A stretch of 64,000 nt of DNA from NCBI GenBank assembly GCA_044228225.1, contig JBGAVH010000021.1, positions 1,737 through 65,736 of the forward strand. The letters run 5' to 3'. The notes beneath the pieces are model-generated. The model did not search any database. It worked only from the letters and a program-made list of their open reading frames with translations, and had not been told where the DNA came from. Shown here piece by piece: positions 1 to 19,358 of the stretch. The stretch is from Saprospiraceae bacterium. Lineage in GTDB: Bacteria; Bacteroidota; Bacteroidia; Chitinophagales; Saprospiraceae. Position numbers and translations under genes: made by a program. Position 1 is the first letter of the stretch. Each line of letters starts with the position of its first letter.

Positions 1-781
1 TCATTTCTACGCTATCAAATAATCACTTTAAAATCCAAAATATGAAATCATATTTTTTGTTTCAGTGCGTCATTTCTACGCTATCAAATAATCTATAAAA
101 TGAGTAAAAATAAGCACCACGTTGCATGTTTCAGTGCGTCATTTCTACGCTATCAAATAATCCAAAAATCAAATAGTATGGAAAGTTTTATGGTATGTTT
201 CAGTGCGTCATTTCTACGCTATCAAATAATCGTTGGTAAGAGTAAGGGTGATTGGTGGAACATATGTTTCAGTGCGTCATTTCTACGCTATCAAATAATC
301 AAAAATAAATTTAATCTTATGGTAGTTCCAATGTTTCAGTGCGTCATTTCTACGCTATCAAATAATCCTTAAAGAATATGGAAACTAGCTTAGAAAAAAT
401 TGTTTCAGTGCGTCATTTCTACGCTATCAAATAATCTTTTTAAAAAAATAAAAATGAATTTAAAAAATGTTTCAGTGCGTCATTTCTACGCTATCAAATA
501 ATCTTACGTCTACCATCAAGTCCTCCGTATACTTATTTGTTTCAGTGCGTCATTTCTACGCTATCAAATAATCCTCTGAAACACCAAAACAACCTTATTT
601 CTAAAAATGTTTCAGTGCGTCATTTCTACGCTATCAAATAATCTTTTGAACAATTTGTTATGCCTAAAATGACAAAAGGTTTCAGTGCGTCATTTCTACG
701 CTATCAAATAATCTTGTAACGATCACAGGCAGCGGTTCTACTCGGAGTTTCAGTGCGTCATTTCTACGCTATCAAATAATC
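1..781 (-). CRISPR. CRISPR array, 35-bp repeat, 11 full repeats plus one truncated at the window edge, 11 spacers of 32-35 bp
   Basis: The plus-strand repeat GTTTCAGTGCGTCATTTCTACGCTATCAAATAATC starts at 59, 128, 197, 266, 333, 402, 469, 539, 609, 679 and 747, with a truncated copy at 1-24. All copies are identical and the spacers are unique. On the minus strand the repeat reads GATTATTTGATAGCGTAGAAATGACGCACTGAAAC. That gives a GCGT/ACGC hairpin followed by ACTGAAAC, the usual position and sequence type of the 8-nt crRNA 5' tag. The cas genes are also on the minus strand, so the array is oriented minus. Confidence 0.97.
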
Positions 782-864: not shown

Positions 865-1167
865 CTAAAAAAACAGTTCGTTTACTTTTCCCATTAATTC
901 ATCTATTGCTATGTGTTTGTCACCTATCCATCTAGCTTGTTCCAAATGTTCCTGAGTTATTTGCAAAATTAGTATTTTATCTGCTATTTGGCAATGTTCT
1001 CTTACTTTTTTGTCTATCTCCAATTCTAGCATCCTGAGATTTTTGCCCTCGATTTGTCCGATGAATACACTCATTTGAATGCGAATTAAACCTCTTTGTT
1101 CCAGTAGTTTTGCCAGTTTGAGTCGCATCTTATCCTCTTGGATATCGTACATGATGATGTGATACAT
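865..1167 (-). CDS. cas2: CRISPR-associated endoribonuclease Cas2
   Basis: The 100-aa protein has the N-terminal beta-strand MYHIIMYDI with a conserved Asp. It lies immediately downstream of cas1 and next to the array. Confidence 0.9.
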   Translation of the reverse strand: MYHIIMYDIQEDKMRLKLAKLLEQRGLIRIQMSVFIGQIEGKNLRMLELEIDKKVREHCQIADKILILQITQEHLEQARWIGDKHIAIDELMGKVNELFF

Positions 1168-1172
1168 TGTTG

Positions 1173-2165
1173 CTATTTATTTTGTTCCATAAAAGCCCTA
1201 ATTCTTTCCGCATAAAGATCAGAATAACGAAATATATGACTTCTTATTCCCATGACACGATCATCCATTTCCCTTTCGCGCAATAATTCTGTATTGACCA
1301 TCTGAATGAGCTTGCGCCTGGCTTGTTTTTCTATGATCCAGCCTCGCTCTGGATCAGGTTCACAAGATTCAATCAATATTTCTTGATTTCTAATATGTTC
1401 TACTAAGCAATAATCGAACCAGGGTCTGAATGGTTCTATGAGATCAAAAGATAAGGTAGGTTCATCGATCTGATCCCTATGCATAAACCCAAATGTAGGA
1501 TCCATGCCACTAGCAAAAATGGCTTGCTCCACAACATGGTATAACATCCCATAACAATAATTGAGTAAGGCATTAAATGGATCTTTTGCTGGTCTCCGAC
1601 TACGTTCTTCAAATTGCCATTCCGGGTCCAAGAAATCATTGAGTTGTCTCCAATATATTTTAGCCACAGTTCCTTCATATCCCATTAATCTACTTCGTTC
1701 TTCTTCAAAAGCTAGTTCACTGGGTGTAAGTATTTCTTCTAAATGTAATTCAATATCTTTTGTAGTCTGTTGATTTTCTTTTTTGGATCCATATTGTTTT
1801 GATAATTGTTTTAGTATAGAAATTTGGTTGTTTGTTTTTTCTCCAAAAATTAATTTCATCTCTGCGATTCTAAAATCATCAGATTCCAATGCCAATACTT
1901 GAAGTCTTCTTAATTGATTATAATGCGATAATTCAGAACTCCATAATCTGCCGATAATATCTCCAGTTCTATCTACAAAAAATATGGGTATCTTATTCGC
2001 AATAGCTAATTCCACTGCTGCACTGGAGATCATGCATTGATTCGTTATAGCTATACTACTGATTCGTGTAGGTGCTATAAGTCGTGCAGTACTGTCGTTT
2101 TTTATTTGAAAGCAATGATTCCTTTTCTTGAGATAGGTACCTTGGGTGTCAATAATTAATTGCAT
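1173..2165 (-). CDS. cas1: CRISPR-associated integrase Cas1
   Basis: The 330-aa protein carries Cas1-type catalytic segments MGYEGTVAKIYW and FGFMHRDQIDEPTLSFDLIEPFRP (E...H...D/E). It is adjacent to cas2. Confidence 0.92.
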   Translation of the reverse strand: MQLIIDTQGTYLKKRNHCFQIKNDSTARLIAPTRISSIAITNQCMISSAAVELAIANKIPIFFVDRTGDIIGRLWSSELSHYNQLRRLQVLALESDDFRIAEMKLIFGEKTNNQISILKQLSKQYGSKKENQQTTKDIELHLEEILTPSELAFEEERSRLMGYEGTVAKIYWRQLNDFLDPEWQFEERSRRPAKDPFNALLNYCYGMLYHVVEQAIFASGMDPTFGFMHRDQIDEPTLSFDLIEPFRPWFDYCLVEHIRNQEILIESCEPDPERGWIIEKQARRKLIQMVNTELLREREMDDRVMGIRSHIFRYSDLYAERIRAFMEQNK

Positions 2166-2171
2166 ATTTAT

Positions 2172-2242
2172 TAGGTTTTAGGTTTATAGGCTATGGGCTG
2201 TAGGTTTTTAGGCTATAGGCTGTGGGGAGTAGGCTATAGGCT
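2172..2242. repeat. Short-word tandem repeat (TAGGnnn / AGGCTATAGG), left flank of the four-helix-bundle gene
   Basis: The sequence is taggttttaggtttataggctatgggctgtaggtttttaggctataggctgtggggagtaggctataggct. The exact word AGGCTATAGG occurs at 2210-2219 and 2231-2240. It is the reverse complement of CCTATAGCCT in the right flank. Confidence 0.85.
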
Positions 2243-2599
2243 TTTGGAATTACGCATACTTCGAACTAAGGAACCCAAGACTTTTTCAGTTTCTAGAAAT
2301 TTATTGACCATTACACTGAAATCTTGTTCACTAACAAAACCTAGCCTAAATGCAAGATCAAATTGATAGTGCATTTCTCTCAATGATCCAAATGCAATTT
2401 CCAAAAATCTATGATATTCATTTTGACTTTCTCTGGCGCATCCTTCCACAATATTGGAAGGCACTGAAACTACTGCTCTCCGAATCTGTGATGTCAATCC
2501 AAAAATCGCTTCTTTTGGAAAATATTTCGAAATTGCATAAATTTCAATGGTTAATTCATCAGCCAATACAAATGCTCTTAGTTGTTTGTGATCTCTCAT
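2234..2599 (-). CDS. Four-helix-bundle protein (23S rRNA intervening-sequence protein family, TIGR02436-like)
   Basis: The 121-aa all-helical protein has family-typical segments LTSQIRRAVVSVPSNIVEG and FLEIAFGSLREMHYQFDLA. Its stop codon lies inside the flanking repeat. Confidence 0.8.
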   Translation of the reverse strand: MRDHKQLRAFVLADELTIEIYAISKYFPKEAIFGLTSQIRRAVVSVPSNIVEGCARESQNEYHRFLEIAFGSLREMHYQFDLAFRLGFVSEQDFSVMVNKFLETEKVLGSLVRSMRNSKSL

Positions 2600-2713: not shown

Positions 2714-2806
2714 ACTCCAACTCCCTATAGCCTTCACCCTAACTCCCTATAGCCTAACACCCTACAGCCTAACCACCTACAGCCTAACCCCCTATAGCCT
2801 AACCCC
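2714..2806. repeat. Short-word tandem repeat (CCTAYAGCCTAAC, period about 15), right flank of the four-helix-bundle gene
   Basis: CCTATAGCCT occurs at 2724, 2746 and 2791, and CCTACAGCCT at 2761 and 2776. The orientation is inverted relative to the left flank. The repeat abuts the RT stop codon at 2806-2808. Confidence 0.85.
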
Positions 2807-3852
2807 TAATAATCAAAATCTAACCAACTCATAGCTCCATATTCTTCTTGCTTGATTTGATTAGCATGAATCCATATGTGGTTTAATTCTTTATATGCTG
2901 ATTGATTCGCACCCAATACCATTTTTACGAATTGCAATCTCCCTTGGAGAGATTTTTTATATTTATCCATGTATGATGGTGGTTCGGTTCGGTAATATCC
3001 ATTCACGAGATTCATGTGTTTTAAGTTTTGCAATTCCTTCCTCAATTCATTAAGATACGAATCACTGAGACTTAATTGATCATTAATAAGCGAAATTCCT
3101 GTGATGACTTTAATATCTTCTAGACCATAGAACTTGATCTTTGATTTATTCATTTTAAAACCATGATGTATGATAACAGCATCTAATTCATGCACATCAT
3201 GTTGAGTTATTGGAAGCGCACTACTGAATGACATATCATCGACAAATCTTGAGTAATACCACTTTTTACTTCCCGCTAAATCATGCAAGACTTTGTCAAG
3301 GTGAATCAATGCAAAATTGGAGAGTACTGGTGAAGTAGGAGCTCCCATAGGTAATCGACCATTATAACTCACCAATTGAATCAGTAATTCGATTAATGGC
3401 TGTTCCATATGAAATGGTGCTTGTTCAAATATCAAATGAATCTTATCATCCGTCACATGATGGAAAAAATCCAATAGATCAATATTCAATAAATAATTAG
3501 AGCCCAAATGTACTTTGGCATTCGATAGAATATTTCTTTTTTGTTTAATATCATTATCCGGTGTAGCTACAAAACCATGAGCCCCCTTGGGCAAACAAAA
3601 AAAATAAACACATTGGAGATAATCATTTAATGTGTCTTGTATTTCTTTTAGTTCATTATATGGATCTTCAATGGTTCTGTAGCCTCCTGATTTCTTTTTT
3701 TGTTTAAAATTTCGATATGTGATGGATTGAATAATCTGAGGTAATGTTTGTTCAGGTATATTCAATAATTCACATAATGCATGCACTGTCCTAATACTTA
3801 GAAACTGATGTTTCAACGACTTCATTACTGATAGTGTAAAATTATGCGCCAT
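2806..3852 (-). CDS. Stand-alone CRISPR-associated reverse transcriptase (group II intron-like RT)
   Basis: The 348-aa protein shows RT motifs NIDLLDFFHHV (motif 3-like), PMGAPTSPVLSNFALIHLD (motif 4) and YYSRFVDDMSFS (YxDD box as FVDD). It is located between cas6 and cas1. Confidence 0.85.
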   Translation of the reverse strand: MAHNFTLSVMKSLKHQFLSIRTVHALCELLNIPEQTLPQIIQSITYRNFKQKKKSGGYRTIEDPYNELKEIQDTLNDYLQCVYFFCLPKGAHGFVATPDNDIKQKRNILSNAKVHLGSNYLLNIDLLDFFHHVTDDKIHLIFEQAPFHMEQPLIELLIQLVSYNGRLPMGAPTSPVLSNFALIHLDKVLHDLAGSKKWYYSRFVDDMSFSSALPITQHDVHELDAVIIHHGFKMNKSKIKFYGLEDIKVITGISLINDQLSLSDSYLNELRKELQNLKHMNLVNGYYRTEPPSYMDKYKKSLQGRLQFVKMVLGANQSAYKELNHIWIHANQIKQEEYGAMSWLDFDY

Positions 3853-3922: not shown

Positions 3923-4606
3923 CTAACAAAGAACTTGCACGCCATAACCAAGACGTACATTCTTGCCAATGGCAATTCGTGGTGGCAAAACTAAATTAAC
4001 CGTGTATAGGATATCGAATACTAAGAACCTAAGACTTTTATCCGGTCTAATTAATTTATAAAAAACAAAATGCAAAACTTTAACATTAATAATTCCAGGA
4101 ACATGCCACCCTATTCCTTTACACAATTGCATCAACAATGAACCCCTAATTCGCTTCTCTAGATCTAAAACTTGTTCTTGATAAGACAAGGCAAGCCATG
4201 ATTTATGACTATCAGGATCGAATGGTGAATAGGCTTGAATAAAATATTTATTTGGCTTTTCTGTCAATGACATCACAAATGAATATTGGTATTTTCTCAT
4301 TTCCGTAACATCGTGTGTGACCCTATCTTTAAATTCATGAATCCCGCCCACAAAATCCATATTCAGTTGATCAGCACCTTGTTGTATTCCGAAAATTCCA
4401 GCACATCCCAGATAGGAACGAAATTGTATCAGAGGATAGAGATTTTCAGATTCCCCTGTTATAAGATCATGACTATGATATAATGGATCTCTAACATCAA
4501 AATAATTTGCCACATCTTTTTGCCATATATATATATCTTTTAAGCTATATGGAGCGGATGTTAATATTTCAGTTATAAGTAAAGGGAAGGTCAATGATTT
4601 CTGCAT
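3923..4606 (-). CDS. cas6: Probable Cas6 crRNA-processing endoribonuclease
   Basis: The 227-aa protein has a C-terminal glycine-rich loop IGKNVRLGYGV typical of Cas6/RAMP proteins. Its position next to RT-cas1-cas2 fits the Cas6-RT-Cas1 fusions known elsewhere. No other Cas6 candidate is present in the locus. Confidence 0.6.
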   Translation of the reverse strand: MQKSLTFPLLITEILTSAPYSLKDIYIWQKDVANYFDVRDPLYHSHDLITGESENLYPLIQFRSYLGCAGIFGIQQGADQLNMDFVGGIHEFKDRVTHDVTEMRKYQYSFVMSLTEKPNKYFIQAYSPFDPDSHKSWLALSYQEQVLDLEKRIRGSLLMQLCKGIGWHVPGIINVKVLHFVFYKLIRPDKSLRFLVFDILYTVNLVLPPRIAIGKNVRLGYGVQVLC

Positions 4607-4875: not shown

Positions 4876-6183
4876 TCATTGTAAAATTGCACTTGTAAAG
4901 AAAAGGTTACCTTTTTTTTCGCTACCTTCTTTCTGAGTCAATTTTATTTTTATTATATCACCGACTTTTTTTACACATTTACCCTGTATAGATATTTCTG
5001 CACTATCCTTATAGTGAGGTTTCACCTTTATGTTTCCAGAACCTACATTTATTATAGTAGCGTCTATCGTTGAATTTAGCATTGTTTCTTTTGAAGATTC
5101 AAATTCTTTTGTATTTACATTCAAAATTAATGTGGTTAGTCCTTTGGGTATGCTATTTTCATCATGCTGCTCAATATCATCAATCGTAATAGGATTAAAA
5201 TTTTTAATTTCCAAGAATGGATTTCGAGCATTATTAATAATATCTTTTTTAAACTGTCCATAGCCCGAAGAGGTTTTTGCACCTATACCATATTTTTGCA
5301 ATAAATACTTAATAAGTTTTACTTTGTGTTCTTTCTTTATTCCTTCATTATTGAGAATAAATTGAAAATTAATTTCCACATCAGGCAAAATTTTTAAAAA
5401 TCGGAGAGGCATAGGGTCAAATAAGGGATGTGGGTGATAAGCAAGAGTATCATCAAAAAGAAATGTACCCAATGAGATTGAAATATCTCTTTCACCATTA
5501 TAATTTGTAGTGTTTGCTATGCGATCAGATACAGTAAAAACAATATTTTTAGTTGTGCCTCTTGAAGGATAAGCCCCTAAAAAGGTATCTTGTTTTAAAG
5601 GGTTAATCTTGGTTTTATCAGTCTTAATTCCTTCAAATAAAATATTTTGAAGACTCTCAATATCACTTTTAGTCCAAGTTTTATTTTTAAACTCTTCTTC
5701 ATTTGCAAAGCAGTTATTAAAATCATCAATTATTCTATTTAAAACTGCCTTCTCTTTATCTTTTTTGTAAGCAATAGGAAAAAAACTTCGTAATCTTCCT
5801 TTTAAATTATGGCCTGTAATGCATGGAATTCCAGTACTATGGTCAAAATAAAACCCCATTTTAAGTTCATGAGATTCAATTTTAATGTGAATATTTTCCC
5901 CATATATTTGTTTTTCAATTTTAACTTTTGCGCCTGTTCCATGTTCATTACCTGTTCCAATTAATAATCCTTGTCCTGATGTTATTAATGTAAATGAAGA
6001 ATACTCATCACCAAATCTACTTTTAAGATTTAATTGTTCAGGATTCAAATCTGCTAATTTGGTTTCAATAAGTAACTTATATAATTCCATGTTATCAATT
6101 CTGTATTGCAGATTTAGCGCTTCATTGTTATGTAAGTTTCTGTAGACCCTTTTATTGAACTCTAACCCTAAATTTGTTTCCAT
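4876..6183 (-). CDS. cmr6: Type III-B RAMP subunit Cmr6 with a C-terminal extension of about 120 aa
   Basis: The 435-aa protein has the RAMP motifs ITGHNLKGRLRSFF and the G-rich loop GAKTSSGYGQF at about aa 300-311. It occupies the last position of the canonical cmr1-6 order. Confidence 0.8.
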   Translation of the reverse strand: METNLGLEFNKRVYRNLHNNEALNLQYRIDNMELYKLLIETKLADLNPEQLNLKSRFGDEYSSFTLITSGQGLLIGTGNEHGTGAKVKIEKQIYGENIHIKIESHELKMGFYFDHSTGIPCITGHNLKGRLRSFFPIAYKKDKEKAVLNRIIDDFNNCFANEEEFKNKTWTKSDIESLQNILFEGIKTDKTKINPLKQDTFLGAYPSRGTTKNIVFTVSDRIANTTNYNGERDISISLGTFLFDDTLAYHPHPLFDPMPLRFLKILPDVEINFQFILNNEGIKKEHKVKLIKYLLQKYGIGAKTSSGYGQFKKDIINNARNPFLEIKNFNPITIDDIEQHDENSIPKGLTTLILNVNTKEFESSKETMLNSTIDATIINVGSGNIKVKPHYKDSAEISIQGKCVKKVGDIIKIKLTQKEGSEKKGNLFFTSAILQ

Positions 6184-6184
6184 A

Positions 6185-6652
6185 CTAAACCAATTTAAAT
6201 TTTCTGATTGCCAATTTCAATGCATTGCCAGCAGTTAGCAAATTAATTAATGCTCTTGTATTTAACATACCATTTGAGGTATTTTCTTCAATGTAGTCGC
6301 TTAAATTTTCTTTTGTAGTTAAGCTAGAATTCTCTTTTAGTAATAGATTTAAGATCCATAGAGTTACAATACTTTTATCTTCACTGCTACCTTTGCTACT
6401 ATTATACATTATGCTTGTAGACAATGGCGTCATAATAATACAATTAGCATTAAAAGATGATATATAACCGTTATAAGTTTTTGGTTTTTCAGTATCTGGA
6501 TATAATGTGGAGTCTTTTTTCTTAAACTCATGAAGTTTTATTATTTCAACTGCTTTTGGGATTAGACTATTGACCCTGAATTTATTTATTGTTATCATAA
6601 ACTTAGAATTTAGAAATTGATGTAAATCCATAAGAGACTGAGGCGTTTCCAC
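6185..6652 (-). CDS. cmr5: Type III-B small subunit Cmr5
   Basis: This is a small helical protein between cmr4 and cmr6. The listed start overlaps cmr4 by 50 nt. An alternative ATG at 6598 (MITINKF...) would start just after the cmr4 stop and give about 137 aa. Confidence 0.7.
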   Translation of the reverse strand: METPQSLMDLHQFLNSKFMITINKFRVNSLIPKAVEIIKLHEFKKKDSTLYPDTEKPKTYNGYISSFNANCIIMTPLSTSIMYNSSKGSSEDKSIVTLWILNLLLKENSSLTTKENLSDYIEENTSNGMLNTRALINLLTAGNALKLAIRKFKLV

Positions 6653-7469
6653 CTACCTGAAGTGGTCTTTTATTATCGCCACAAAGGGTTTCTTCCACAA
6701 ATTTTTGTTGTTCCATATTCTTCCAAATATTTGCAAAATACATTAGACTAAATCTTGGTAAAACCTGTTCGTACCAAAGGTTCTGGCTTTCGCCATCGTC
6801 CAGAGCATTCCTTGAAATTACAGGTAAATATAAATCGGAACAAAGTTCTGCCATTGTTCTATCTGATACTAATGCTATTCTTGAATTAATTGTATCAAAT
6901 AGTGTATTAAGTAATTCTGCTAATTCATTGTTAGCAGAATTATATTGTAAAGTAGTGCCAACAATATCCAATTCAGCTCCTGAGTAATTATTATTAAAAC
7001 ATATTCCTGATTCTGGAGTGCTGTCTGAAACCAGTGTTTTAACTTCTTCATATATTGACTTTGAAATGGGTTTTCCCAACAATTTGCTCATATACTCAAA
7101 GGAGTTTATCAATTCTGGGGAGGTCGTTAATAAATACGACACTTTATTTGTCCTTACTGGCATTGCCAACAAGTGAGCTGTAAAGAAAACACTTTCTCCT
7201 TGTTGAGTAATTGTAGGAATGCCGCCTTTGTTTGCACTGGCATCGCTACCAAAAATCAAAGTCATCAATTCATTTTTGTTGTCCGCAGATGAATAATTGT
7301 CAACGTGTTGTTTAATAGCTCCTTTCATACTTGTGCTATTAAAGCAAGGGTACCCGGTTGCAGAATCTCTTTGAATGAGTTGGTCAATAAATCCAAACCC
7401 TGATTCTCCTGTGCCTACATGTGTATCTGTAATGGTTTCTAACCTGTAAAACTCTACATTATTGCTCAT
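6603..7469 (-). CDS. cmr4: Type III-B backbone RAMP subunit Cmr4 (target-RNA cleaving subunit)
   Basis: The 288-aa protein has an N-terminal segment ETITDTHVGTGESGFGFIDQLIQRD...STSMKGAIKQH matching the Cmr4 pattern (HVGxG ... D ... SxKG). Confidence 0.85.
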   Translation of the reverse strand: MSNNVEFYRLETITDTHVGTGESGFGFIDQLIQRDSATGYPCFNSTSMKGAIKQHVDNYSSADNKNELMTLIFGSDASANKGGIPTITQQGESVFFTAHLLAMPVRTNKVSYLLTTSPELINSFEYMSKLLGKPISKSIYEEVKTLVSDSTPESGICFNNNYSGAELDIVGTTLQYNSANNELAELLNTLFDTINSRIALVSDRTMAELCSDLYLPVISRNALDDGESQNLWYEQVLPRFSLMYFANIWKNMEQQKFVEETLCGDNKRPLQVGGNASVSYGFTSISKF

Positions 7470-8613
7470 TTTTTAACGTGTTTAATTGTTTGAAATAATT
7501 GTATCCTATTTTTTTATATGTTTTATTTATTTGATCTTCATTTATTGTATTTATGAATTCAAGTAATTTAACAGGATTTATAAATGCAATACTTCCTTTT
7601 TTAATTAATAATTTGCTATCAGAAAAAATATCAGCATTACCTTTCTTTAAATTGAACAGGTCATTTAAATTATTTTTTGCATCAGTTTTCATAGAACGGA
7701 AATGTTGAGTAGTACCGACGAATTGAGCAATATTTCTGTATGCAGAATGGCTTAGTATAGTGTCACTGATAAAATGAACTATATTACCACCTTCAATTTG
7801 TGAAGTAAATAGATTTACATCTGGTATGTTTTCTTTTTTTATACTTACTTTATAAGAAGAAGCTTCTCCTCCAAAAGTAATGAAAATGTTTTTCGAATCA
7901 TCTAATAATTCGTCAATATCAGCTAAAAATGAAAAGTGATAATTTCGGTTTAATTTATAATATTGAGTTTTGAAGTACGCGTCATCTTGAGAACTGGCAT
8001 TATAGTTTTTTAAAATACCAGGTTGTAAATGTTTAATAAAAATACCATTATTAATATTTAATTTTTTAGTTTTTTGATCAAAAAAATTGGCTGTTGAAAA
8101 AATTTCCTTCTTGCAAATCATTGCTACCGGCTTAGAATAGTTTGATGGAATAAAACAATCATTAAAAAAATGTTCCTTCATATTTAATTGTTCTGATAAT
8201 TTCACAGAATTTATTACTGAACTTATTGTATTTAATTGTGAAACATCTATGTTGTTAAAACTAACATTAATATCTGAAATGTTTGTATTCACAAGATTGC
8301 TCAAATCTTTAAAAGGTAATAGAACTTTTTGTTCATCTTCTTTATAAATAAAAAGTGGATATACTTTATTTATTTTTCCAAATATTTGATTTTTGGAACC
8401 GTCAAAACTTTTAATACCTATTAGATTATCCCAGTCGTCTTTTATATCTATTTTACCAGTAGCTAAAAGTAAATAATGCCGAATTAAACCTAGTATACCA
8501 GTTTGCTGTGGAAATGGATTGCTTTCCATAAAGTAGGAAGGTCTGATGGGATGTTTTTCTTTTCCAAAATAGAACTTGTCTAGTGGAGTTAAAATAAATT
8601 GATAAATTGCCAT
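7459..8613 (-). CDS. cmr3: Type III-B subunit Cmr3
   Basis: The 384-aa protein starts with MAIYQFILTPLDKFYFGKEKHP, a typical Cmr3 start. It sits directly after cas10. Confidence 0.75.
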   Translation of the reverse strand: MAIYQFILTPLDKFYFGKEKHPIRPSYFMESNPFPQQTGILGLIRHYLLLATGKIDIKDDWDNLIGIKSFDGSKNQIFGKINKVYPLFIYKEDEQKVLLPFKDLSNLVNTNISDINVSFNNIDVSQLNTISSVINSVKLSEQLNMKEHFFNDCFIPSNYSKPVAMICKKEIFSTANFFDQKTKKLNINNGIFIKHLQPGILKNYNASSQDDAYFKTQYYKLNRNYHFSFLADIDELLDDSKNIFITFGGEASSYKVSIKKENIPDVNLFTSQIEGGNIVHFISDTILSHSAYRNIAQFVGTTQHFRSMKTDAKNNLNDLFNLKKGNADIFSDSKLLIKKGSIAFINPVKLLEFINTINEDQINKTYKKIGYNYFKQLNTLKNEQ

Positions 8614-8618
8614 AATGC

Positions 8619-10376
8619 TTAATGTCTAAATTCGTTATCTCTAATAAAATGAATAAATTTTAGCATAGAAACAATAGTGTTTAAAGTAATTGAATCGTAC
8701 CCTTGATTTTTTAAAATTGCTTCTATCCATTCTCTGACTTCTTTTAAATATGTCAAAAATTCTTTATGTATTTTTTCGTTAAAACTTATTTCGAACAAAT
8801 CCTCCAAATTTGTTACATTAATATCTAAATATTGCCCATAGTTTTCTATTATTTTTTTATGAATTGAGTTTAGAAATTTATCTGATTTTTCTCCAGTTAA
8901 ATTTTTAGTATTGTTACAATTTAAAAGGCTTAAATATTTTTTGAAAACATCATAAAAATTTTTGTCAATGATACCATAATAATTTTGTTTGCTATGTTTT
9001 TGCAAAACAAAATGCAACCTGTTTCTGCTTTTGTAATTATTATCATTTTTGACGGCATACATCAGTTCTTTGCTTTGTTCAAATGCTTCTCTAAGTGGAA
9101 ATTTGTAATAAGTGATGGAAATACCATAAGTCATGCAGGGTCTATTTCCTACTATTTGTTCATATTTTTCAAATGTATTGTCCGGTTTCTTCTTATTAAA
9201 TATTTCTTCAAAACAGTTATCTAAATCAGCTACTAAATCAAATACTGTTTTAAATTCATTCTTCTCGTTGATTGAGGCAACAGGCGCAAAGAAAACTAAT
9301 TCATCCCCTCCAATATAAATAGGCGCAGCGCCATATCCCCACTTTGTTTTGCTGCCATTGGTAAACCTTTCTCCAGCTAAAATTCGATTTGCTTCATATG
9401 AAAAATTTACTAGATCTGCTGAAAATTTTTGAATTTCAATATCATCGTTTAAAGTGCCAATTAATTTACCCATATTATCTCCATCAGCATGTACTATGGC
9501 AATATATTTATGGTAAGTTCTTAGGTGGTTATTCAATTCTGGAATTTCTTTAAATATATATTCCAATGAACTTGTGTCTTCTTTGAGTTTAATTTCTCCA
9601 GTATTTTCATCATCCATGTTTTCTGGTTCTACAATTTTTAATTTTGCTAAATCACTTCTAATTTTATTTCTTATTTTATCTTGTGCTAGGTATTTGTCAT
9701 CTTCTTTTTTTATAAATTGAAGCTCATTAGTTGCAATTTCAGTCAGACTCGGAAATCCATTTTTATTGACTGTACCAAAGGCATCTTTTACAAGAAAACT
9801 ATGGTTAATAAAATGTAACAAAACATAAAATGGATCTGGATCATAATGAGCCAATGAGGGCATTAATTCGGCATTGTCTAAGTATAAGTTCAATGATTTT
9901 ACAGGTCCTATAAGTTCATTTTCGTCATTGACGAAACATAAATCCTTTGAATCTGCTTCTATTGCATATGCCTTAAAGTAGTCATAAAAAAAAGATTTTA
10001 ATCCATGCTCATCCTTTTTAAGAACTTTAATTTGTTCCGTATATTCTCCAAAGGTGAAATTTTTATTCAACTCATTCCATAATTGTTTAGCAATGTTTTC
10101 TTTAACTTCCTTAATGATTGTATTGATTTCGACGAAATTCCCATTTTCTTTCAAAGCCAGTAAGATTCTATCTGGAAATAGCCCTACGCCTGGTGTGGTT
10201 GCATTTATATATTTTGTATCTGGTAGTAAAACGATATACTTATTAGTATCAATCATTTTTAAAATTTCCTTACAAATATATGCAAACATATAGCTGGCAC
10301 CCCAAATCTCTCTTGTTTTCTGTGCTTTTTTTAGTGTGTCATTTATCGGACCTAAAGTTATACCAATGTATTTCAT
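8619..10376 (-). CDS. cas10: Cas10/Cmr2 large subunit lacking an HD domain, with cyclase palm retained
   Basis: The 585-aa protein starts with GITLGPINDTL...REIWGASYMFAY, the segment that normally follows the HD domain. Its palm motifs are IAIVHADGDNMGK (D298, D300) and YIGGDELVFFAP (GGDE at aa 356-359, nt 9300-9311). Confidence 0.88.
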   Translation of the reverse strand: MKYIGITLGPINDTLKKAQKTREIWGASYMFAYICKEILKMIDTNKYIVLLPDTKYINATTPGVGLFPDRILLALKENGNFVEINTIIKEVKENIAKQLWNELNKNFTFGEYTEQIKVLKKDEHGLKSFFYDYFKAYAIEADSKDLCFVNDENELIGPVKSLNLYLDNAELMPSLAHYDPDPFYVLLHFINHSFLVKDAFGTVNKNGFPSLTEIATNELQFIKKEDDKYLAQDKIRNKIRSDLAKLKIVEPENMDDENTGEIKLKEDTSSLEYIFKEIPELNNHLRTYHKYIAIVHADGDNMGKLIGTLNDDIEIQKFSADLVNFSYEANRILAGERFTNGSKTKWGYGAAPIYIGGDELVFFAPVASINEKNEFKTVFDLVADLDNCFEEIFNKKKPDNTFEKYEQIVGNRPCMTYGISITYYKFPLREAFEQSKELMYAVKNDNNYKSRNRLHFVLQKHSKQNYYGIIDKNFYDVFKKYLSLLNCNNTKNLTGEKSDKFLNSIHKKIIENYGQYLDINVTNLEDLFEISFNEKIHKEFLTYLKEVREWIEAILKNQGYDSITLNTIVSMLKFIHFIRDNEFRH

Positions 10377-11734
10377 TTTACCTGTGGTTTCAATTGTTCA
10401 TAAATATTATTGATAATTTTGTATTCATTTGTAGTTCGAAAACCATTAATGTCCTCCACCCAATTTGAATTGTAAGTACTTATAGCATATTGTAAAAATT
10501 CAGAATAATTAAATTTAACAGGGTATTTTAATTTTAATCCACTAGTGCCTTTGAAATCTACTTTGAATATTTTATCTAAAATTTCTGATTCCCCATTTAT
10601 TGTTGCCCCATTTTCAAATTGATATTGAATATATGGTGGTACTCCAAAAAACACCCGATATTGTTTTTCCGCTATTTTAATAGGCTTAAATATTAGGGGC
10701 GATTTAAAGCGATTTATTTTAGAATCTTTAAGATCAATACTTTTATTAATTTTCCAATAGCTTGCTGATTCTGTTGATGACAATCCCAATAAATCTCTCC
10801 ATAAATGCCTTTCTAAGTAATCTGGTAATCTATCTTCGTACCCTAATGGGAAATTACTATTATTAGAGTTTGGTCGCATAGTCTTAACCGCTGCATCATC
10901 AAATCTTTTTATAATATTTCCTTGTCTATCAATTATTTTTAGTTTGTTCTTGTATTTATTTTTTATACTCTTTTTATCCCAGTGTTCTTTTTTGCTTTTC
11001 GCAAAAGCCCACATTAGTGATTTAAAATAAAAAATATCATTTCCTTGATTGTCTTTTACATTATGTCCACTTCTTAGTGTTTTGTAAAAAAAATTAATTA
11101 CTTCAAAAACAGTATAGAAAAGCTCTTTTTGATTTTTTTCATATTTTAATTTATTTTCATCAACATCAAAATAATATGGTAATATATCTTGCCTTATTAA
11201 ATAGTCATACTTTTCAATTGGATAATAAGAACCAAATCCTTTACTTTGTCTAGTTCCAAAATTCTTAAGTAAAAAGAAATTAGCAATTACACTATCTATG
11301 TATATTAATAAATCTGTATATACCGACTTTATTTTAAGTGTAATTAAATCATTTACAATTATTGCCTTTTTATACTTTGTTTTATCATTAAATGATTCTT
11401 CGTTCATCATATTTCCGAAAAAGCCAAGTTTTTCTGTTTGACTTTTGTCATATATTTTTGCATTAGTACTGTTGAGGAAAATTTCTACCTCATAATCAAA
11501 GCTTGGATTTGTTGGTTTTGTTGAATGTTTGAGCCAGTTTTTTAATTCATAGTTAGATGTTGCTGCATTCAACCTTTCTGCTTTATCGCTACTAAAACAA
11601 TTGCTTTTGTCTCCTATAATAAATTTATCTAATGCTGCTTTCAGTTCTGTACATCTCAATGATGCATCTGTCAAAAAATATTGGAAATGAATGATTGGGG
11701 TATGCTGTTTTAATGAATATTGTAGTTGATACAT
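10373..11734 (-). CDS. cmr1: Type III-B RAMP subunit Cmr1 (large variant)
   Basis: The 453-aa protein has the RAMP G-rich loop FGTRQSKGFGSY. It holds the first position of the cmr1-cas10-cmr3-4-5-6 order. Its stop overlaps the cas10 start by 4 nt (ATGA). Confidence 0.7.
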   Translation of the reverse strand: MYQLQYSLKQHTPIIHFQYFLTDASLRCTELKAALDKFIIGDKSNCFSSDKAERLNAATSNYELKNWLKHSTKPTNPSFDYEVEIFLNSTNAKIYDKSQTEKLGFFGNMMNEESFNDKTKYKKAIIVNDLITLKIKSVYTDLLIYIDSVIANFFLLKNFGTRQSKGFGSYYPIEKYDYLIRQDILPYYFDVDENKLKYEKNQKELFYTVFEVINFFYKTLRSGHNVKDNQGNDIFYFKSLMWAFAKSKKEHWDKKSIKNKYKNKLKIIDRQGNIIKRFDDAAVKTMRPNSNNSNFPLGYEDRLPDYLERHLWRDLLGLSSTESASYWKINKSIDLKDSKINRFKSPLIFKPIKIAEKQYRVFFGVPPYIQYQFENGATINGESEILDKIFKVDFKGTSGLKLKYPVKFNYSEFLQYAISTYNSNWVEDINGFRTTNEYKIINNIYEQLKPQVK

Positions 11735-11739
11735 ATCAT

Positions 11740-12051
11740 TTATTTAATTAGATTTTTTATATAATTAATATCGTCTTCATTGTAAGAATTGATCAACGAA
11801 ATGAGTTTTTCATTAAATTTTTTATCAATTTCAATTTTATTTTTGAGTGGTGTAATATTGTTAGAATGGAGATCTTTTTCTTTTTGTAATTTAAATTGTT
11901 TTTCTTCAAGTTCATGTTGGCAATTTAACATTTTTAATTTATAAGCTTCTTTTGAGCAATGTAAAATTACTTTTGTGGAAGAATATATAAAGTATACAAG
12001 AATTACGCCACCAACAAACCAAGGAAGAAAGTCTTTAATTACCTGTTCCAT
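11740..12051 (-). CDS. Small membrane-anchored coiled-coil protein, unknown function (CRISPR-operon embedded)
   Basis: The 103-aa protein has one N-terminal TM helix (FLPWFVGGVILVYFIYSSTKVIL) followed by a charged K/E-rich helical region. It overlaps the 3' end of the CorA-like gene by 13 nt and ends 5 nt before cmr1. Confidence 0.6.
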   Translation of the reverse strand: MEQVIKDFLPWFVGGVILVYFIYSSTKVILHCSKEAYKLKMLNCQHELEEKQFKLQKEKDLHSNNITPLKNKIEIDKKFNEKLISLINSYNEDDINYIKNLIK

Positions 12052-13622
12052 ATTTTATTTTTTTGAAATTGTTTATATATTTTTACTATTGAATATAATA
12101 CTAAAATTATACTTCCTGAATAAGTAACCCAATCAAAAATACTAAATGTATTCCACCAATTATCATTATTAGGAATGCTAGTTAGTTCATTTGGTGTATG
12201 AGTCGGATTGCAAGTATTCATTCCAATTAAAGAAGCGATCAAAGTCAGTGGTAAGAAATCATTAGCAACTTTCGACAAATTGCTCTGTTCTTGGGTCTCC
12301 ATATATTCATTGAGTTCTTCAATTTCTTTACCTAGGCTATCTACATCTAGCTGTATTCTCATTTTTTCTTGAAGCATATCGTATAGTTCTATACCTTGTT
12401 CTTGAGCTGTAACTTCTCTAAAATATATTCTATTTTTGAATTTTATATAGTTTAGATACAATGTTGATATGTCATTTTTTTGAGAGAATTTTGAACTTGC
12501 ATTTATGGATTTAGAAATTCTAGCTACTTCTTTACTGTACAGTAGTAAATAGGCTCTTTGCAATAAGCATAATAACACCAAGTCAAAATATTGATTTGCC
12601 ATGTGAGTTGAAACAATGTTTTTTGGAAAATACTCTTGACCACTTAACATGACAAATGAATATCTACTCAATCCATATATTTGTGAACCTTCTGGGTCTT
12701 CATGATTAATCCATCTTTTATAGGTATGTTTATCAACCATTTCTTTCCGCATTATAAAATTGGAGCATCCAGGTTTTGAATCATCAATAAATATATATCG
12801 ATACCATTTATTAATGGTTTCTTTATTACAGAATAGCGCGTAAGTTGACTCTGCTGCACAATAACATGTGAACTCTTTGGCTAACTCATTATCGAGTATA
12901 TGTGATATTACAAACATTCTATCGTCTAAAATTGGTTTGACAACACATTTATTATAATCTGAAGTATTGCCACCAAAGTGGCTTCCTAATAATCCAAAAA
13001 TATGCTTTGGTTGAATTGCGGCATCTAAATTGGTATCAAAGGACTTAAAACCTTCTTCAACATCACCAGGAAATATGTTTTTGAGTGTTATTTTATCAGC
13101 TAAAAAACCGTATTCTTTTATAGGCTTTGTATATTCATTTTGTTCAACTCCTAAATATTGCGGATAAATACGCCTTCCATATTCATTTATTTTTAATATT
13201 AATTTGAAGTCTTTAGTTTGATAGTTTAATAAATGAAATGCCATAATACCAACTCCATTTTCATAAAATCCTAACATAATGTCTTGGATCTTTAATTTAA
13301 TGGTTTCTTCACCTATTATGTCAATTTCATACGTAGGATCTGAATAATTAAATTTACACTGGTATTGTCTTGCATTAATGTCATTATTTGGATCATTATT
13401 CAAGTTTAATACATCTCTTGCATATTCATAAAAATAACTGTATATATTGTATGTATTAATATTGTCATCAACTTTATTTTTAAATTGGAATTGTTCCCAT
13501 ATATTTTTTTCTTGGATAAATTCGGAGATTTGTTCTAGATTAAATCGATTATCATTGTTACTATTGATTTGCCATGAAAATGGAAATATGAATAGATGTT
13601 GTGAATGAAAGTTAATATCCAT
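12039..13622 (-). CDS. corA: CRISPR-associated CorA-like membrane effector
   Basis: The 527-aa protein has a C-terminus DFLPLTLIASLIGMNT (CorA GMN motif in TM1), then a periplasmic loop, a second TM helix (IFDWVTYSGSIILVLYSIVKIY) and a basic tail KNKIWNR. Its soluble N-terminal domain of about 440 aa is much longer than in housekeeping CorA. Confidence 0.82.
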   Translation of the reverse strand: MDINFHSQHLFIFPFSWQINSNNDNRFNLEQISEFIQEKNIWEQFQFKNKVDDNINTYNIYSYFYEYARDVLNLNNDPNNDINARQYQCKFNYSDPTYEIDIIGEETIKLKIQDIMLGFYENGVGIMAFHLLNYQTKDFKLILKINEYGRRIYPQYLGVEQNEYTKPIKEYGFLADKITLKNIFPGDVEEGFKSFDTNLDAAIQPKHIFGLLGSHFGGNTSDYNKCVVKPILDDRMFVISHILDNELAKEFTCYCAAESTYALFCNKETINKWYRYIFIDDSKPGCSNFIMRKEMVDKHTYKRWINHEDPEGSQIYGLSRYSFVMLSGQEYFPKNIVSTHMANQYFDLVLLCLLQRAYLLLYSKEVARISKSINASSKFSQKNDISTLYLNYIKFKNRIYFREVTAQEQGIELYDMLQEKMRIQLDVDSLGKEIEELNEYMETQEQSNLSKVANDFLPLTLIASLIGMNTCNPTHTPNELTSIPNNDNWWNTFSIFDWVTYSGSIILVLYSIVKIYKQFQKNKIWNR

Positions 13623-14218
13623 TACATTTTATTTAATTCTTTAAAACATACTAATTCCATCCTGGCATCAAACAATGCATTATGCAATTTCAAACCATCT
13701 TTATCTATATAATCGATTAATCCGTAACCTTCTTCATTTTTAATTCTAGGTATTTCTACAGAATACCCTTTGAATTGAATGAATGTAGCTAGATCCAAAC
13801 ACATATAATGTATATTTTTTGGAATCTCAAAAGCCCCTCCGAACAATTCACAGAATAACACCCAGTCCCAATGAGGTACATCACCCCAGATCTGGATATT
13901 TGGAATAATATGGCCATGCTGATCTCTTTTCAATTCAAATTGACCAAACCATATCTTTAAAGCTGTAGCAATTTCTTTCTTGCCACCTTTAATATGCATT
14001 TTTCTAAGATCTTCCCAATTTTGATTTGCATCATTAAGGCATAAATTAGCAATAACATGTTCTTCTAACCAAGGCGTTAATTGCTTAACATCATAATCCG
14101 TAAATTCAGCATAGAATTCCTCTCCATTCATTCCAACCAATGCCAGTGAAATCAGCGTCGTATCCTGACGTAATCCGGTGAATTCTGTATCGAGAAACAG
14201 CTTTGCGGTTAGTTTCAT
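13622..14218 (-). CDS. DEDDh-family 3'-5' exo(ribo)nuclease (Rv2179c-like), first gene of the type III-B operon
   Basis: The 198-aa protein has ExoI FLDTEFTG (D10, E12), ExoII PHWDWVLF (D118) and ExoIII HNALFDA (H179, D184). Its stop codon overlaps the CorA-like start codon (TAATG). Confidence 0.85.
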   Translation of the reverse strand: MKLTAKLFLDTEFTGLRQDTTLISLALVGMNGEEFYAEFTDYDVKQLTPWLEEHVIANLCLNDANQNWEDLRKMHIKGGKKEIATALKIWFGQFELKRDQHGHIIPNIQIWGDVPHWDWVLFCELFGGAFEIPKNIHYMCLDLATFIQFKGYSVEIPRIKNEEGYGLIDYIDKDGLKLHNALFDARMELVCFKELNKM

Positions 14219-14577
14219 GTGGGGGTTAAGATTTGGGGGTTAGTTGGCTTTGCTTTTCATGTTAGGAACAATATGGATCTCTGGTCCGAATGACCTTGTG
14301 AAATAGGGTAGGGTTGAAAATGAGAAGTTGATAAAAACTATTATTACTCATATTAATTAATTCATAAATGCATTATTAATTGATTTGCTTATTAATATAT
14401 TATTGCAATGTCTAAGTATTGGAGAATATTAAAAAAGTTATTTGGTCAACAACAAAATCTTAATGAACTCCTAACGCTAAAGATAGAAATATTTAAATTG
14501 CTGGTATGTTTATAGGTATTTATTTTTTAAAAATAATTTAGTTGACAGTATTATAGTAATTAGTCTACAGAATAAAA

Positions 14578-14668
14578 GTCGTCAGTTGTCAGTCGAAAGA
14601 GTAATAAAGGAAATCTGGTAATCGGTAATCATTATCTATGGTAAGTCGTAATGGGGTAAATTGTAAAT
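14578..14668. repeat. Heptamer-word low-complexity block (GTCAGTT/GTCAGTC, GGTAATC x2, GGTAAGT/CGTAATG...)
   Basis: The block reads gtcgtcagttgtcagtc ... ggtaatcggtaatc ... ggtaagtcgtaatggggtaaattgtaaat. It lies in the 619-bp intergenic region upstream of the CRISPR-Cas operon. Confidence 0.6.
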
Positions 14669-14836
14669 ATCAGACTTCCATTTTTTTAAGAATTCTTTGG
14701 TTTGAAGTTAACTTTATTACAGTTCTTACAGCATCGATGAACTGAGCCTATTAATTTTAGTGGCTTATTATACAAGTTCAATTAACTGTCTATATTTAAC
14801 CTTAAATCTTATGCAATAATCCATTTAAGATTTACC

Positions 14837-18152: not shown

Positions 18153-19358
18153 ATGATTAAATATTTTACACTCTGTTTCTTCCTGACGATATCATTTTCT
18201 TTTGCCCAATCGTGGACCAAGTTAAATGACCTCCCAGATTCGATTTTGGGTAGAGATCATCCATTTACTTTTGCATTAAATGGTAATGGTTTCATGGGCG
18301 CAGGCAGTACGATAGACGGCTTGAAAAGTGATTTTTATAAATATGATCCATTGACTGATCAATGGACTGAACTGGATAGTTTTCCTGGAGGTCCTCGTGG
18401 ATATTCTTATGGTTTTAATTATAAGGGGTACGGGTATGCCGGGTTTGGAATATCAACTACTGCCTATTTAAAAGATCTTTGGCGCTTTGATCCAAGCACT
18501 GAAACCTGGACGGAATTAGCCAGTTGCCCTTGTGAAGGAAGGGGCCATCCTGCATTTTTAGCAGCAGATGATAAAATATTTGTTGGCCTTGGATCTTCCA
18601 GATTAGGAAATTTAAAAGATTGGTGGGAGTATGATATTAAAACTAATCAGTGGCAACAAAGAGATAGTTTTCCCGGAGTCAAAAGACACCATCCCTATTA
18701 TTTTGAAGTGAACGAAAAAGCATACGTTGGATTTGGTCATGGAGAGGGCATTTTTAAAGATCTATATGAATATGACCCCAAGTCCAACAAATGGACTCAA
18801 ATGAATAATCTACCAGCACAAGGCCGTGTGGCAGGAACCCAATTTAGCTATCAAAACAAAGGTTATATATTAAGTGGTCAAGGTGAAGATCATGATTACT
18901 TAGGCGAGGGTGAATTCTGGGAATTCAATCCATTGACCAATGATTGGAAACAACTTACATCCCATCCTGGACAAGGCAGATGGGCTCCGGGTTCATTTGT
19001 TATAGGAAACAAAGTTTATTTTATTACAGGAGAATTAAAAACGTATATGAATGATGTTATGAGCTATGAATTGAACCCTATAGTAAATACAAAAGATGTA
19101 ACATTAAATACTGACATCCCTTTTGAAATATCACCAAATCCTGCACATCAATTATTGAAAATAGTAGCCAAAGTTGGCTATGATTTAGTGGGAACATTCG
19201 AGATAAAAAACAATCTGGGACAAACCGTCATTTCAACAAACTCAAAAGAATTAAACCACATTAATTTTGATCTAACTTCTTTCTCAACAGGAACCTATTA
19301 TCTGCATTTCAAAAACCAAATAGAACGATTTACAAGGCGTTTTTTGGTTGTAAAATAA
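18153..19358 (+). CDS. Kelch-repeat protein with T9SS C-terminal sorting domain
   Basis: The protein has a signal peptide and repeated W-containing Kelch blades (DxWxxL, YxFDPxTxxWT). Its C-terminus is ISPNPAHQLLKI...YYLHF. Confidence 0.8.
   Translation: MIKYFTLCFFLTISFSFAQSWTKLNDLPDSILGRDHPFTFALNGNGFMGAGSTIDGLKSDFYKYDPLTDQWTELDSFPGGPRGYSYGFNYKGYGYAGFGISTTAYLKDLWRFDPSTETWTELASCPCEGRGHPAFLAADDKIFVGLGSSRLGNLKDWWEYDIKTNQWQQRDSFPGVKRHHPYYFEVNEKAYVGFGHGEGIFKDLYEYDPKSNKWTQMNNLPAQGRVAGTQFSYQNKGYILSGQGEDHDYLGEGEFWEFNPLTNDWKQLTSHPGQGRWAPGSFVIGNKVYFITGELKTYMNDVMSYELNPIVNTKDVTLNTDIPFEISPNPAHQLLKIVAKVGYDLVGTFEIKNNLGQTVISTNSKELNHINFDLTSFSTGTYYLHFKNQIERFTRRFLVVK

Follow-up and report, generated by a model that had tools for sequence, protein, structure and literature searches.

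A DEDDh exonuclease beside corA in a Saprospiraceae type III-B CRISPR locus: a candidate SAM-AMP-degrading partner in the place of NrN or lyase

The window analysed here, a stretch of 64,000 nucleotides from a Saprospiraceae bacterium (GenBank assembly GCA_044228225.1, contig JBGAVH010000021.1, positions 1,737 to 65,736 of the forward strand), carries a complete type III-B CRISPR locus comprising an array, an adaptation module, Cmr1–6, CorA and a small DEDDh 3′–5′ exonuclease. The DEDDh gene lies at the head of the locus and all the rest follows downstream on one strand, the minus strand. This gene (13622..14218, 198 amino acids from an ATG start) is the subject of the present analysis; its product has an Rv2179c/RNase AS-like fold and falls in a clade of CorA-linked sequences. 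The next gene (12039..13622) encodes a CRISPR-associated CorA membrane effector of 527 amino acids, recognised by the PADLOC model PDLC01174 (E = 3e-97); a Pfam search with this product gave no match. The two genes overlap in the sequence TAATG (13620..13624), in which the stop codon TAA of the DEDDh gene (13624–13622) and the ATG of corA (13622–13620) have one base in common. We think it probable that the DEDDh protein is an enzyme with an intact catalytic site and dedicated to CorA, that is, the known ‘DEDD’ partner which replaces the phosphodiesterase NrN or a lyase, and that it hydrolyses the messenger SAM-AMP, a conjugate of S-adenosylmethionine (SAM) and adenosine monophosphate (AMP), to SAM and 5′-AMP.

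DEDDh enzymes free a 5′-nucleoside monophosphate (5′-NMP) from the 3′ end of their substrates, and the residues that define the group are all present in the window protein. The Exo I motif, D-x-E, is found in FLDTEFTG from residue 8 (D10 and E12), the Exo II aspartate in HWDWV from residue 116 (D118) and the H-x4-D of Exo III, which marks the ‘h’ subtype, in HNALFDA from residue 179 (H179 and D184). Across 52 aligned homologues there is no variation at E12, D118 or D184, and conservation at D10 and H179 is 90% or higher. D118 pairs with the Exo II aspartate of Rv2179c (in AYD), whereas the likewise invariant D113 does not. This extra aspartate, five residues ahead of D118 (the pair spans 13865–13882, minus strand), is replaced by Trp in Rv2179c, from which the window protein also differs by an insertion of ~12 residues (residues 96–107). 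An earlier note on this DNA had described the open reading frame (ORF) as Rv2179c-like with a complete DEDDh set, as overlapping a CorA-like gene by TAATG and as the first gene of the operon. The motif positions it gave are exact, the overlap can be read directly in the sequence and the neighbour is indeed a CRISPR CorA.

That it is the first gene of the operon is plausible on indirect grounds, because the DEDDh gene is preceded by a gap of 618 bp and because its upstream neighbours vary among related loci. The gap is an AT-rich intergenic region (14219..14836, minus strand) that is presumed to hold the promoter region of the module. No terminator was predicted upstream of the gene, and a scan of the same region for sigma-70 promoters did no better than on shuffled sequence (13 sites against 11.4 expected), the promoters of Bacteroidota being outside the scope of that scan.

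Pfam places the protein in the Rv2179c-like family PF16473 (33.4 bits against a cutoff of 27, residues 6–191), and a sequence profile search matched it to Rv2179c (4hec/4oke) with E = 2e-17. The NCBIfam equivalog for RNase AS, NF033638, scored 56 bits against a cutoff of 200, so that the window protein is a relative of RNase AS and not its orthologue. The profile of the phage family PHROG 2259 matched over residues 4–197 (E = 4e-42), and the PADLOC model for cas-associated DEDDh proteins matched marginally, over residues 7–129 only (E = 8e-4). The AlphaFold2 model of the protein (mean predicted local distance difference test score 95.5, predicted template modelling (TM) score 0.91) has the RNase H-like exonuclease fold, every top Foldseek match being a DEDDh exonuclease. 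The best matches in the Protein Data Bank (PDB) are structures of the Mycobacterium tuberculosis RNase AS/Rv2179c (6s0m, 4oke, 4hec and 4hvj) with E ~ 5e-11, TM scores of 0.85–0.87 and 21–22% identity. The PDB titles describe this enzyme as a polyadenylate-specific exoribonuclease, and 4hvj is its complex with AMP.

RNase AS thus provides the closest solved structure, with the PF16473 match, the DEDDh core and the small single-domain architecture in common with the window protein, and it is an AMP-releasing enzyme for which a crystal structure with AMP exists. It differs in being an RNase linked to housekeeping or virulence and in lying outside any CRISPR context, and our literature searches found nothing that ties Rv2179c or RNase AS to CRISPR or CorA. 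A second tier of structural matches (E ~ 1e-5) consists of Orn, Cap18, RNase T and REXO2. Orn and REXO2 are DEDDh dinucleotidases that free a 3′-terminal 5′-NMP, but they are housekeeping enzymes and are more distant from the window protein (TM ~ 0.6, 15–18% identity). Cap18 (PDB 7t2s), the ninth structural match, is a DEDDh accessory of a nucleotide-signalling defence system as the window protein would be; the system is a different one, however (the cyclic-oligonucleotide-based antiphage signalling system, CBASS), and the similarity is low (TM 0.53–0.59, 14% identity).

The genomic context of the gene was assessed in a survey seeded with CorA, in which 80 genome loci were fetched (from 311 CorA loci overall) and classified with custom hidden Markov models (HMMs). 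NrN stands beside corA in 35 of these loci, as a separate gene in 21 and fused to CorA in 14. A DEDDh gene of the window type takes this place in 14 loci, a second and remotely related DEDD family (‘type 2’) in four, a conserved 124-amino-acid ORF in Clostridium, presumably the lyase, in three and a WDGH-domain protein in two. No recognised partner was found in 15 loci, and in the remaining seven the upstream sequence is missing. DEDDh and NrN did not occur together in any of the 80. Each of the 14 DEDDh loci has the gene 2–272 nt upstream of corA and in the same orientation, and in a separate search seeded with the DEDDh protein all four unrelated long contigs examined have a homologue (45–56% identity) directly upstream of corA and cmr1–6. 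A metagenomic representative, P0317 (771 amino acids), is a fusion of a window-type DEDDh (residues 1–180) to CorA (residues 187–759, E = 6e-110), parallel to the fusions of NrN to CorA. The assignment of the DEDDh gene to the slot of NrN or the lyase, made in the earlier note, is therefore supported by synteny and by the fusion, and the survey that it proposed showed DEDDh and NrN to be mutually exclusive in these 80 loci.

The window itself conforms to this pattern, since profile searches found no NrN, lyase, WDGH or type 2 DEDD gene in it. The NrN profile used here was built from the N-terminal parts of the NrN–CorA fusions. Pfam has no match to these N-termini, and they were assigned to NrN by their GGxDLEM and DHH motifs. 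When the partner types are plotted on a tree of CorA they are interleaved, with at least 19 changes of partner and DEDDh in 13 separate clades; the tree was calculated by neighbour-joining without support values and the count of changes is accordingly rough. Such interleaving fits repeated swapping among genes that would be functionally equivalent.

Downstream of corA lie the genes of the Cmr complex, all on the minus strand: cmr1 (10373..11734; PADLOC, E = 1.4e-57), cas10/cmr2 (8619..10376), cmr3 (7459..8613; Pfam Cas_Cmr3), cmr4 (6603..7469; TIGR02580, 139.9 bits against a cutoff of 87), cmr5 (6185..6652; PADLOC, E = 6e-14) and cmr6 (4876..6183; TIGR01898, 76.4 bits against a cutoff of 51.1). 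The Cas10 protein has 585 amino acids and begins with Cmr2_N, without an N-terminal HD domain. Chi et al. (2023, Nature, PMC10600005) tied the use of SAM by the Bacteroides fragilis Cas10 to two acidic residues, D70 and E151, and the response of its CorA to SAM-AMP to the residue pairs R152/R153 and D219/D220, which they mutated. The corresponding residues in the window, D69 and E170 in Cas10 and R150/R151 and D233/D234 in CorA, were equated with those of B. fragilis by motif and position and not by direct alignment. The two acidic residues are invariant in 73 of 73 CorA-linked Cas10s, which include the DEDDh, NrN and lyase types, and in the NrN-type Cas10s of Bacteroidales the equivalent positions are 69–74 and 145–157. 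The arginine and aspartate pairs of CorA are invariant in the 38 sequences compared. Both sets of residues are those expected of a SAM-AMP-signalling III-B system of the CorA-1 cluster. The cyclase motif of the window Cas10 is GGDE (residues 356–359; 9300–9311, minus strand), where 71 of the 73 CorA-linked Cas10s have a GGDD-type motif.

The remaining genes of the locus, again on the minus strand, are cas6b (3923..4606; Pfam Cas6b_N and Cas6b_C, and PADLOC) and those of the adaptation module, namely a stand-alone reverse transcriptase (2806..3852; Pfam RVT_1 and the PADLOC reverse transcriptase models), cas1 (1173..2165; Pfam Cas_Cas1, E = 7e-69) and cas2 (865..1167; Pfam CRISPR_Cas2). A gene of the 23S rRNA-intervening-sequence-protein family (2234..2599; PF05635, E = 6e-32) is situated between the reverse transcriptase and cas1. 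The CRISPR array (1..781) holds 12 or more repeats of 36 nt, separated by spacers of 31–34 nt, and extends past the start of the window. Between corA and cmr1 the ORF call gave a frame of 103 amino acids with one predicted transmembrane helix (11740..12051, minus strand), of which no sequence homologue was found in any fetched locus. Short membrane ORFs occur at this position in 18 of 22 DEDDh-type loci and in six of 26 NrN-type loci (Fisher p ~ 1e-4, uncorrected for phylogeny; 27 NrN-type loci were examined, 26 of which had a scorable downstream ORF). Elsewhere in the window, the genes at 18153–19358 (plus strand) and 29364–32210 (minus strand) encode Por_Secre_tail domains of the type IX secretion system sorting type, in keeping with a host from the Bacteroidota.

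That a DEDD nuclease may accompany corA is already in the literature. Chi et al. (2023) described corA as adjoining “NrN or DEDD” phosphodiesterases and proposed both as off-switches; their DEDD examples came from S. oralis and S. lipocalidus, with RNase T, Orn and REXO2 as best structural matches, and they credit the association of corA with DEDD to Shmakov 2018. Hoikkala 2024 (Nucleic Acids Research, PMC11229360) built databases of DEDD, NrN and lyase proteins, mapped them on a CorA tree and words the activity of DEDD on SAM-AMP as if demonstrated, and a Nature Communications paper of 2026 restates the corA–DEDD association. The term DEDD was found neither in Shah 2019, where CorA is mentioned, nor in the supplements of Hoikkala 2024. 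Since three papers already pair DEDD with corA, the displacement of NrN by DEDDh is the existing working hypothesis of the field and is not new. The premise of the earlier note, that CorA loci carry NrN or a lyase, is incomplete to the same extent, in that it omits a DEDD partner already listed and already proposed as an off-switch. What the present analysis adds is the mutual exclusivity over 80 loci, the DEDDh–CorA fusion, the count of at least 19 partner changes, the SAM-AMP residues, the likeness to RNase AS, the phage family and the second DEDD family.

The published DEDD resembles the window gene in being a small DEDD nuclease by corA in a III-B system, in the position of NrN, and a proposed SAM-AMP degrader. 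The examples from S. oralis and S. lipocalidus, however, match RNase T, Orn and REXO2 best, whereas the best match of the window protein is RNase AS, and the DEDD proteins beside corA comprise at least two sequence families. The NrN of B. fragilis shares with the window DEDDh the slot adjacent to or fused with corA, from which each excludes the other, and the predicted products are the same. In fold and chemistry the two (DHH and DEDDh) are unrelated, and activity on SAM-AMP is demonstrated for NrN and predicted for DEDDh. Other functional analogues are the ring nucleases (Crn1–3, Csx3) and the SAM-AMP lyase/AcrIIIB4, which are CRISPR- or phage-encoded destroyers of a Cas10 messenger; their folds and chemistry are likewise unrelated to those of DEDDh.

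Taken together, these observations suggest the following sequence of events. On binding of target RNA, Cas10 would join ATP to the 3′-OH of SAM to give SAM-AMP, as its D69/E170 signature leads us to expect. SAM-AMP would then activate the CorA channel, a step for which the conserved arginine and aspartate pairs argue. The DEDDh enzyme would remove the 3′-terminal 5′-AMP by two-metal hydrolysis of the 3′–5′ phosphodiester, giving SAM and AMP as NrN does; this we infer from the fold, the intact catalytic residues, the adenylate specificity of the nearest structural relative and the genomic equivalence with NrN. The linkage in SAM-AMP is indeed a 3′–5′ phosphodiester, and NrN splits it into SAM and AMP without cleaving pApA or the cyclic oligoadenylates cA2–6 (Chi et al., 2023).

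The published work also bears on what such an enzyme would be for. CorA-mediated immunity needs the activity of NrN or the lyase, being lost when their catalytic residues are mutated, and CorA by itself has some toxicity; the authors of the turnover work suggested that degradation of SAM-AMP may prevent desensitisation of the channel. By this work turnover of SAM-AMP is needed for CorA immunity itself, possibly against channel desensitisation or leak toxicity, and not just for ending the response afterwards. By genomic equivalence with NrN and the lyase, turnover by DEDDh should likewise be required for immunity. The earlier note had called the enzyme a candidate off-switch for the signal. The context supports a candidate signal degrader, but ‘off-switch’ is too simple a term because degradation of SAM-AMP is required for CorA immunity.

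Several features of the family lend themselves to other explanations. The enzyme could be a general 3′–5′ exoribonuclease or nanoRNase that acts on RNA, clearing fragments of target RNA or trimming the 3′ ends of crRNA: its nearest relatives away from CorA are exonucleases that phages encode in settings of nucleic-acid metabolism (AR9 g131, PHROG 2259), and RNase AS, according to its PDB entry titles, degrades poly(A) RNA. We regard this as unlikely, given that the gene is bound to corA, by the overlap in the window and by the fusion in P0317, and not to cas6 or the cmr genes, and that in the 80 loci DEDDh is never found with NrN, whose demonstrated substrate is SAM-AMP. General trimming of RNA does not predict this exclusivity. 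A role in adaptation, trimming prespacers or DNA in the manner of the DEDDh–Cas2 fusions of certain type I-E systems, has in its favour the reverse transcriptase–Cas1–Cas2 module of the locus and the weak match (E = 8e-4) with PADLOC's model of cas-associated DEDDh proteins. That match is, however, marginal and confined to residues 7–129, and the DEDDh gene stands at the end of the locus opposite cas1, cas2 and the reverse transcriptase and beside corA in every related locus, which makes such a role very improbable. Trimming of crRNA or prespacers, the alternatives offered in the earlier note, is thus disfavoured, because the gene is linked to corA and not to cas6, cas1 or cas2.

A more closely related alternative is that the substrate is another or longer product of Cas10, such as SAM-AMP2 or a linear oligoadenylate of the pppApA type, degraded by stepwise removal of AMP from the 3′ end, in which case the enzyme would not be equivalent to NrN. 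A 3′–5′ exonuclease is chemically suited to such a task and the GGDE motif of the window Cas10 is unusual among its relatives, but the system is a III-B with the same D/E signature in Cas10, and the frequent swapping of DEDDh and NrN on the CorA tree argues for a common substrate; we therefore hold this possibility to be doubtful. The idea that the gene is a passenger of phage origin with no CRISPR role would account for the many homologues in phages (138 in GenBank and 101 viral contigs in IMG/VR). It is effectively refuted by the conserved synteny: the adjacency to corA has been kept over dozens of divergent loci, a fusion protein exists and a tree sets the CorA-linked sequences apart from those of phages, with 29 of 30 on one side of a split.

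Hydrolysis of SAM-AMP remains the best explanation of these data, but several points weigh against it. The specificity of RNase AS for adenylate cannot be transferred to the window protein, because the two share only 21–22% identity and the equivalog cutoff is failed. The DEDDh scaffold itself looks like that of a general exonuclease, since the larger branch of the family is phage-borne or free-standing and unlinked to corA, and the CorA-linked group is set apart from it by subtle residue differences. The trees of CorA and of the DEDDh family are both neighbour-joining trees without support values. The published DEDD proteins of S. oralis and S. lipocalidus are only possible members of the window family, and no assay of any CorA-linked DEDD on SAM-AMP was found in the literature searched.

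The wider family was sampled in several ways. An exhaustive search gave 2,194 cluster representatives (clustered at 50% identity) with E ≤ 1e-3. In a metagenome scan of 80 loci seeded with DEDDh, corA is adjacent in only 11, and another 35 lack it over a downstream sequence of 1.5 kb or more. Full-length homologues with 38–44% identity to the window protein are encoded by 138 GenBank phages, and a further set is carried by 101 IMG/VR viral contigs, the identities of the two sets together ranging from 30 to 44%. Among the 80 IMG/VR contigs fetched, none has corA or cas10. The phages that carry the gene include the Bacillus jumbo phages AR9 and PBS1, Enterococcus Schiekvirus phages and Streptomyces phages. 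In AR9 the gene (g131; L252, 3998–4591) follows a DNA polymerase gene, and in EFDG1 the homologue (L253, 3998–4528) adjoins Nudix and phosphoesterase genes; the category of PHROG 2259 is ‘DNA, RNA and nucleotide metabolism’. The exonucleases of PHROG 2259 (for example those of AR9, g131, of PBS1, gp18, and of EFDG1) resemble the window DEDDh over their full length and in their catalytic residues, and differ from it in their replication or nucleotide-metabolism surroundings, in having no corA or cas10 nearby and in belonging to a separate branch.

This separation is seen in a tree of 170 sequences, in which 29 of the 30 CorA-linked sequences group with six others, and 134 phage or free-standing sequences group with the one remaining CorA-linked sequence. 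Labelling each sequence as CorA-linked or phage by its nearest neighbour gave the correct assignment for 135 of 138. The six viral sequences that fell among the CorA-linked ones were considered as anti-CRISPR candidates and ruled out as long-branch outliers or borderline cases. The catalytic residues are common to both groups. Modest differences are found beside the catalytic motifs, at positions 26, 112, 114, 143 and 144; at the first three the CorA-linked group has A26, A112 and V114 where the phage group has G, S and C. In some metagenomic relatives the C-terminus is extended by further domains, such as a putative P-loop kinase-like region in P0305.

From the split in the tree, the shared catalytic residues and the modest group-specific differences, the CorA-linked DEDDh is seen to be a specialised offshoot of a general and largely phage-borne exonuclease scaffold, much as NrN is related to DHH nanoRNases with housekeeping roles. 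It is tempting to go one step further. The CorA DEDDh might have been recruited from PHROG 2259 as a family perhaps specialised in removing 3′ adenylates from small adenylated molecules, with some phage members destroying SAM-AMP or other adenylate-terminated immune signals and the CRISPR version able to trim products of the SAM-AMP2 type that may be beyond NrN, but we put this forward as an unlikely conjecture. A phage SAM-AMP lyase, AcrIIIB4, has been proposed to destroy SAM-AMP. An anti-CRISPR role of the phage DEDDh homologues is speculative, because the hosts of the cultured phages that carry them are not known to possess CorA type III systems.

Other partners and neighbours were noted at the surveyed CorA loci. 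The proteins of the type 2 DEDD family, with the motifs ‘VFDCEA...HHPLDDA’ and a length of ~170–185 amino acids, are often encoded on the strand opposite to corA (L036, 2216–2731, plus; L065, 9430–9945, minus; L079, 1345–1842, minus; L091, 2188–2739, minus). They have no Pfam match and just 29 homologues in 5.8 billion proteins, and are remote kin of the window family. WDGH proteins (PF25311) are found directly upstream of corA in L015 (3379–3744, plus; E = 8e-32) and L073 (9659–9946, plus; 21.5 bits against a threshold of 27); NrN, DEDD and lyase were not found in these two loci, and the WDGH proteins may be a further class of CorA partner. In some loci of Campylobacterota, proteins of ~370 amino acids are encoded upstream of corA (L033, 8831–9970; L057, 8843–9928; L063, 1639–2775). 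A Card1-like endonuclease domain is present in that of L033, with which the other two group by BLASTP; no recognisable SAM-AMP-degrading gene was found in these three loci. Ahead of the DEDDh gene in L006 (3501–7993), and also in L007–L009, are two NYN-domain genes, two unannotated genes and one gene of the Exo_endo_phos family, which were ruled out as conserved accessories, being restricted to one lineage.

Signalling by SAM-AMP through CorA, a branch of CRISPR immunity that was discovered recently, depends on degradation of the signal. Of the three reported classes of SAM-AMP degrader two, NrN and the lyase, have been characterised, and DEDD is the third. The findings in the window do not overturn the current understanding of this branch; the locus is a clean and complete example of the DEDD class. 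The existence of at least two sequence families, the resemblance of the major one to RNase AS and the abundance of phage relatives could serve as guides for work on the DEDD enzymes.

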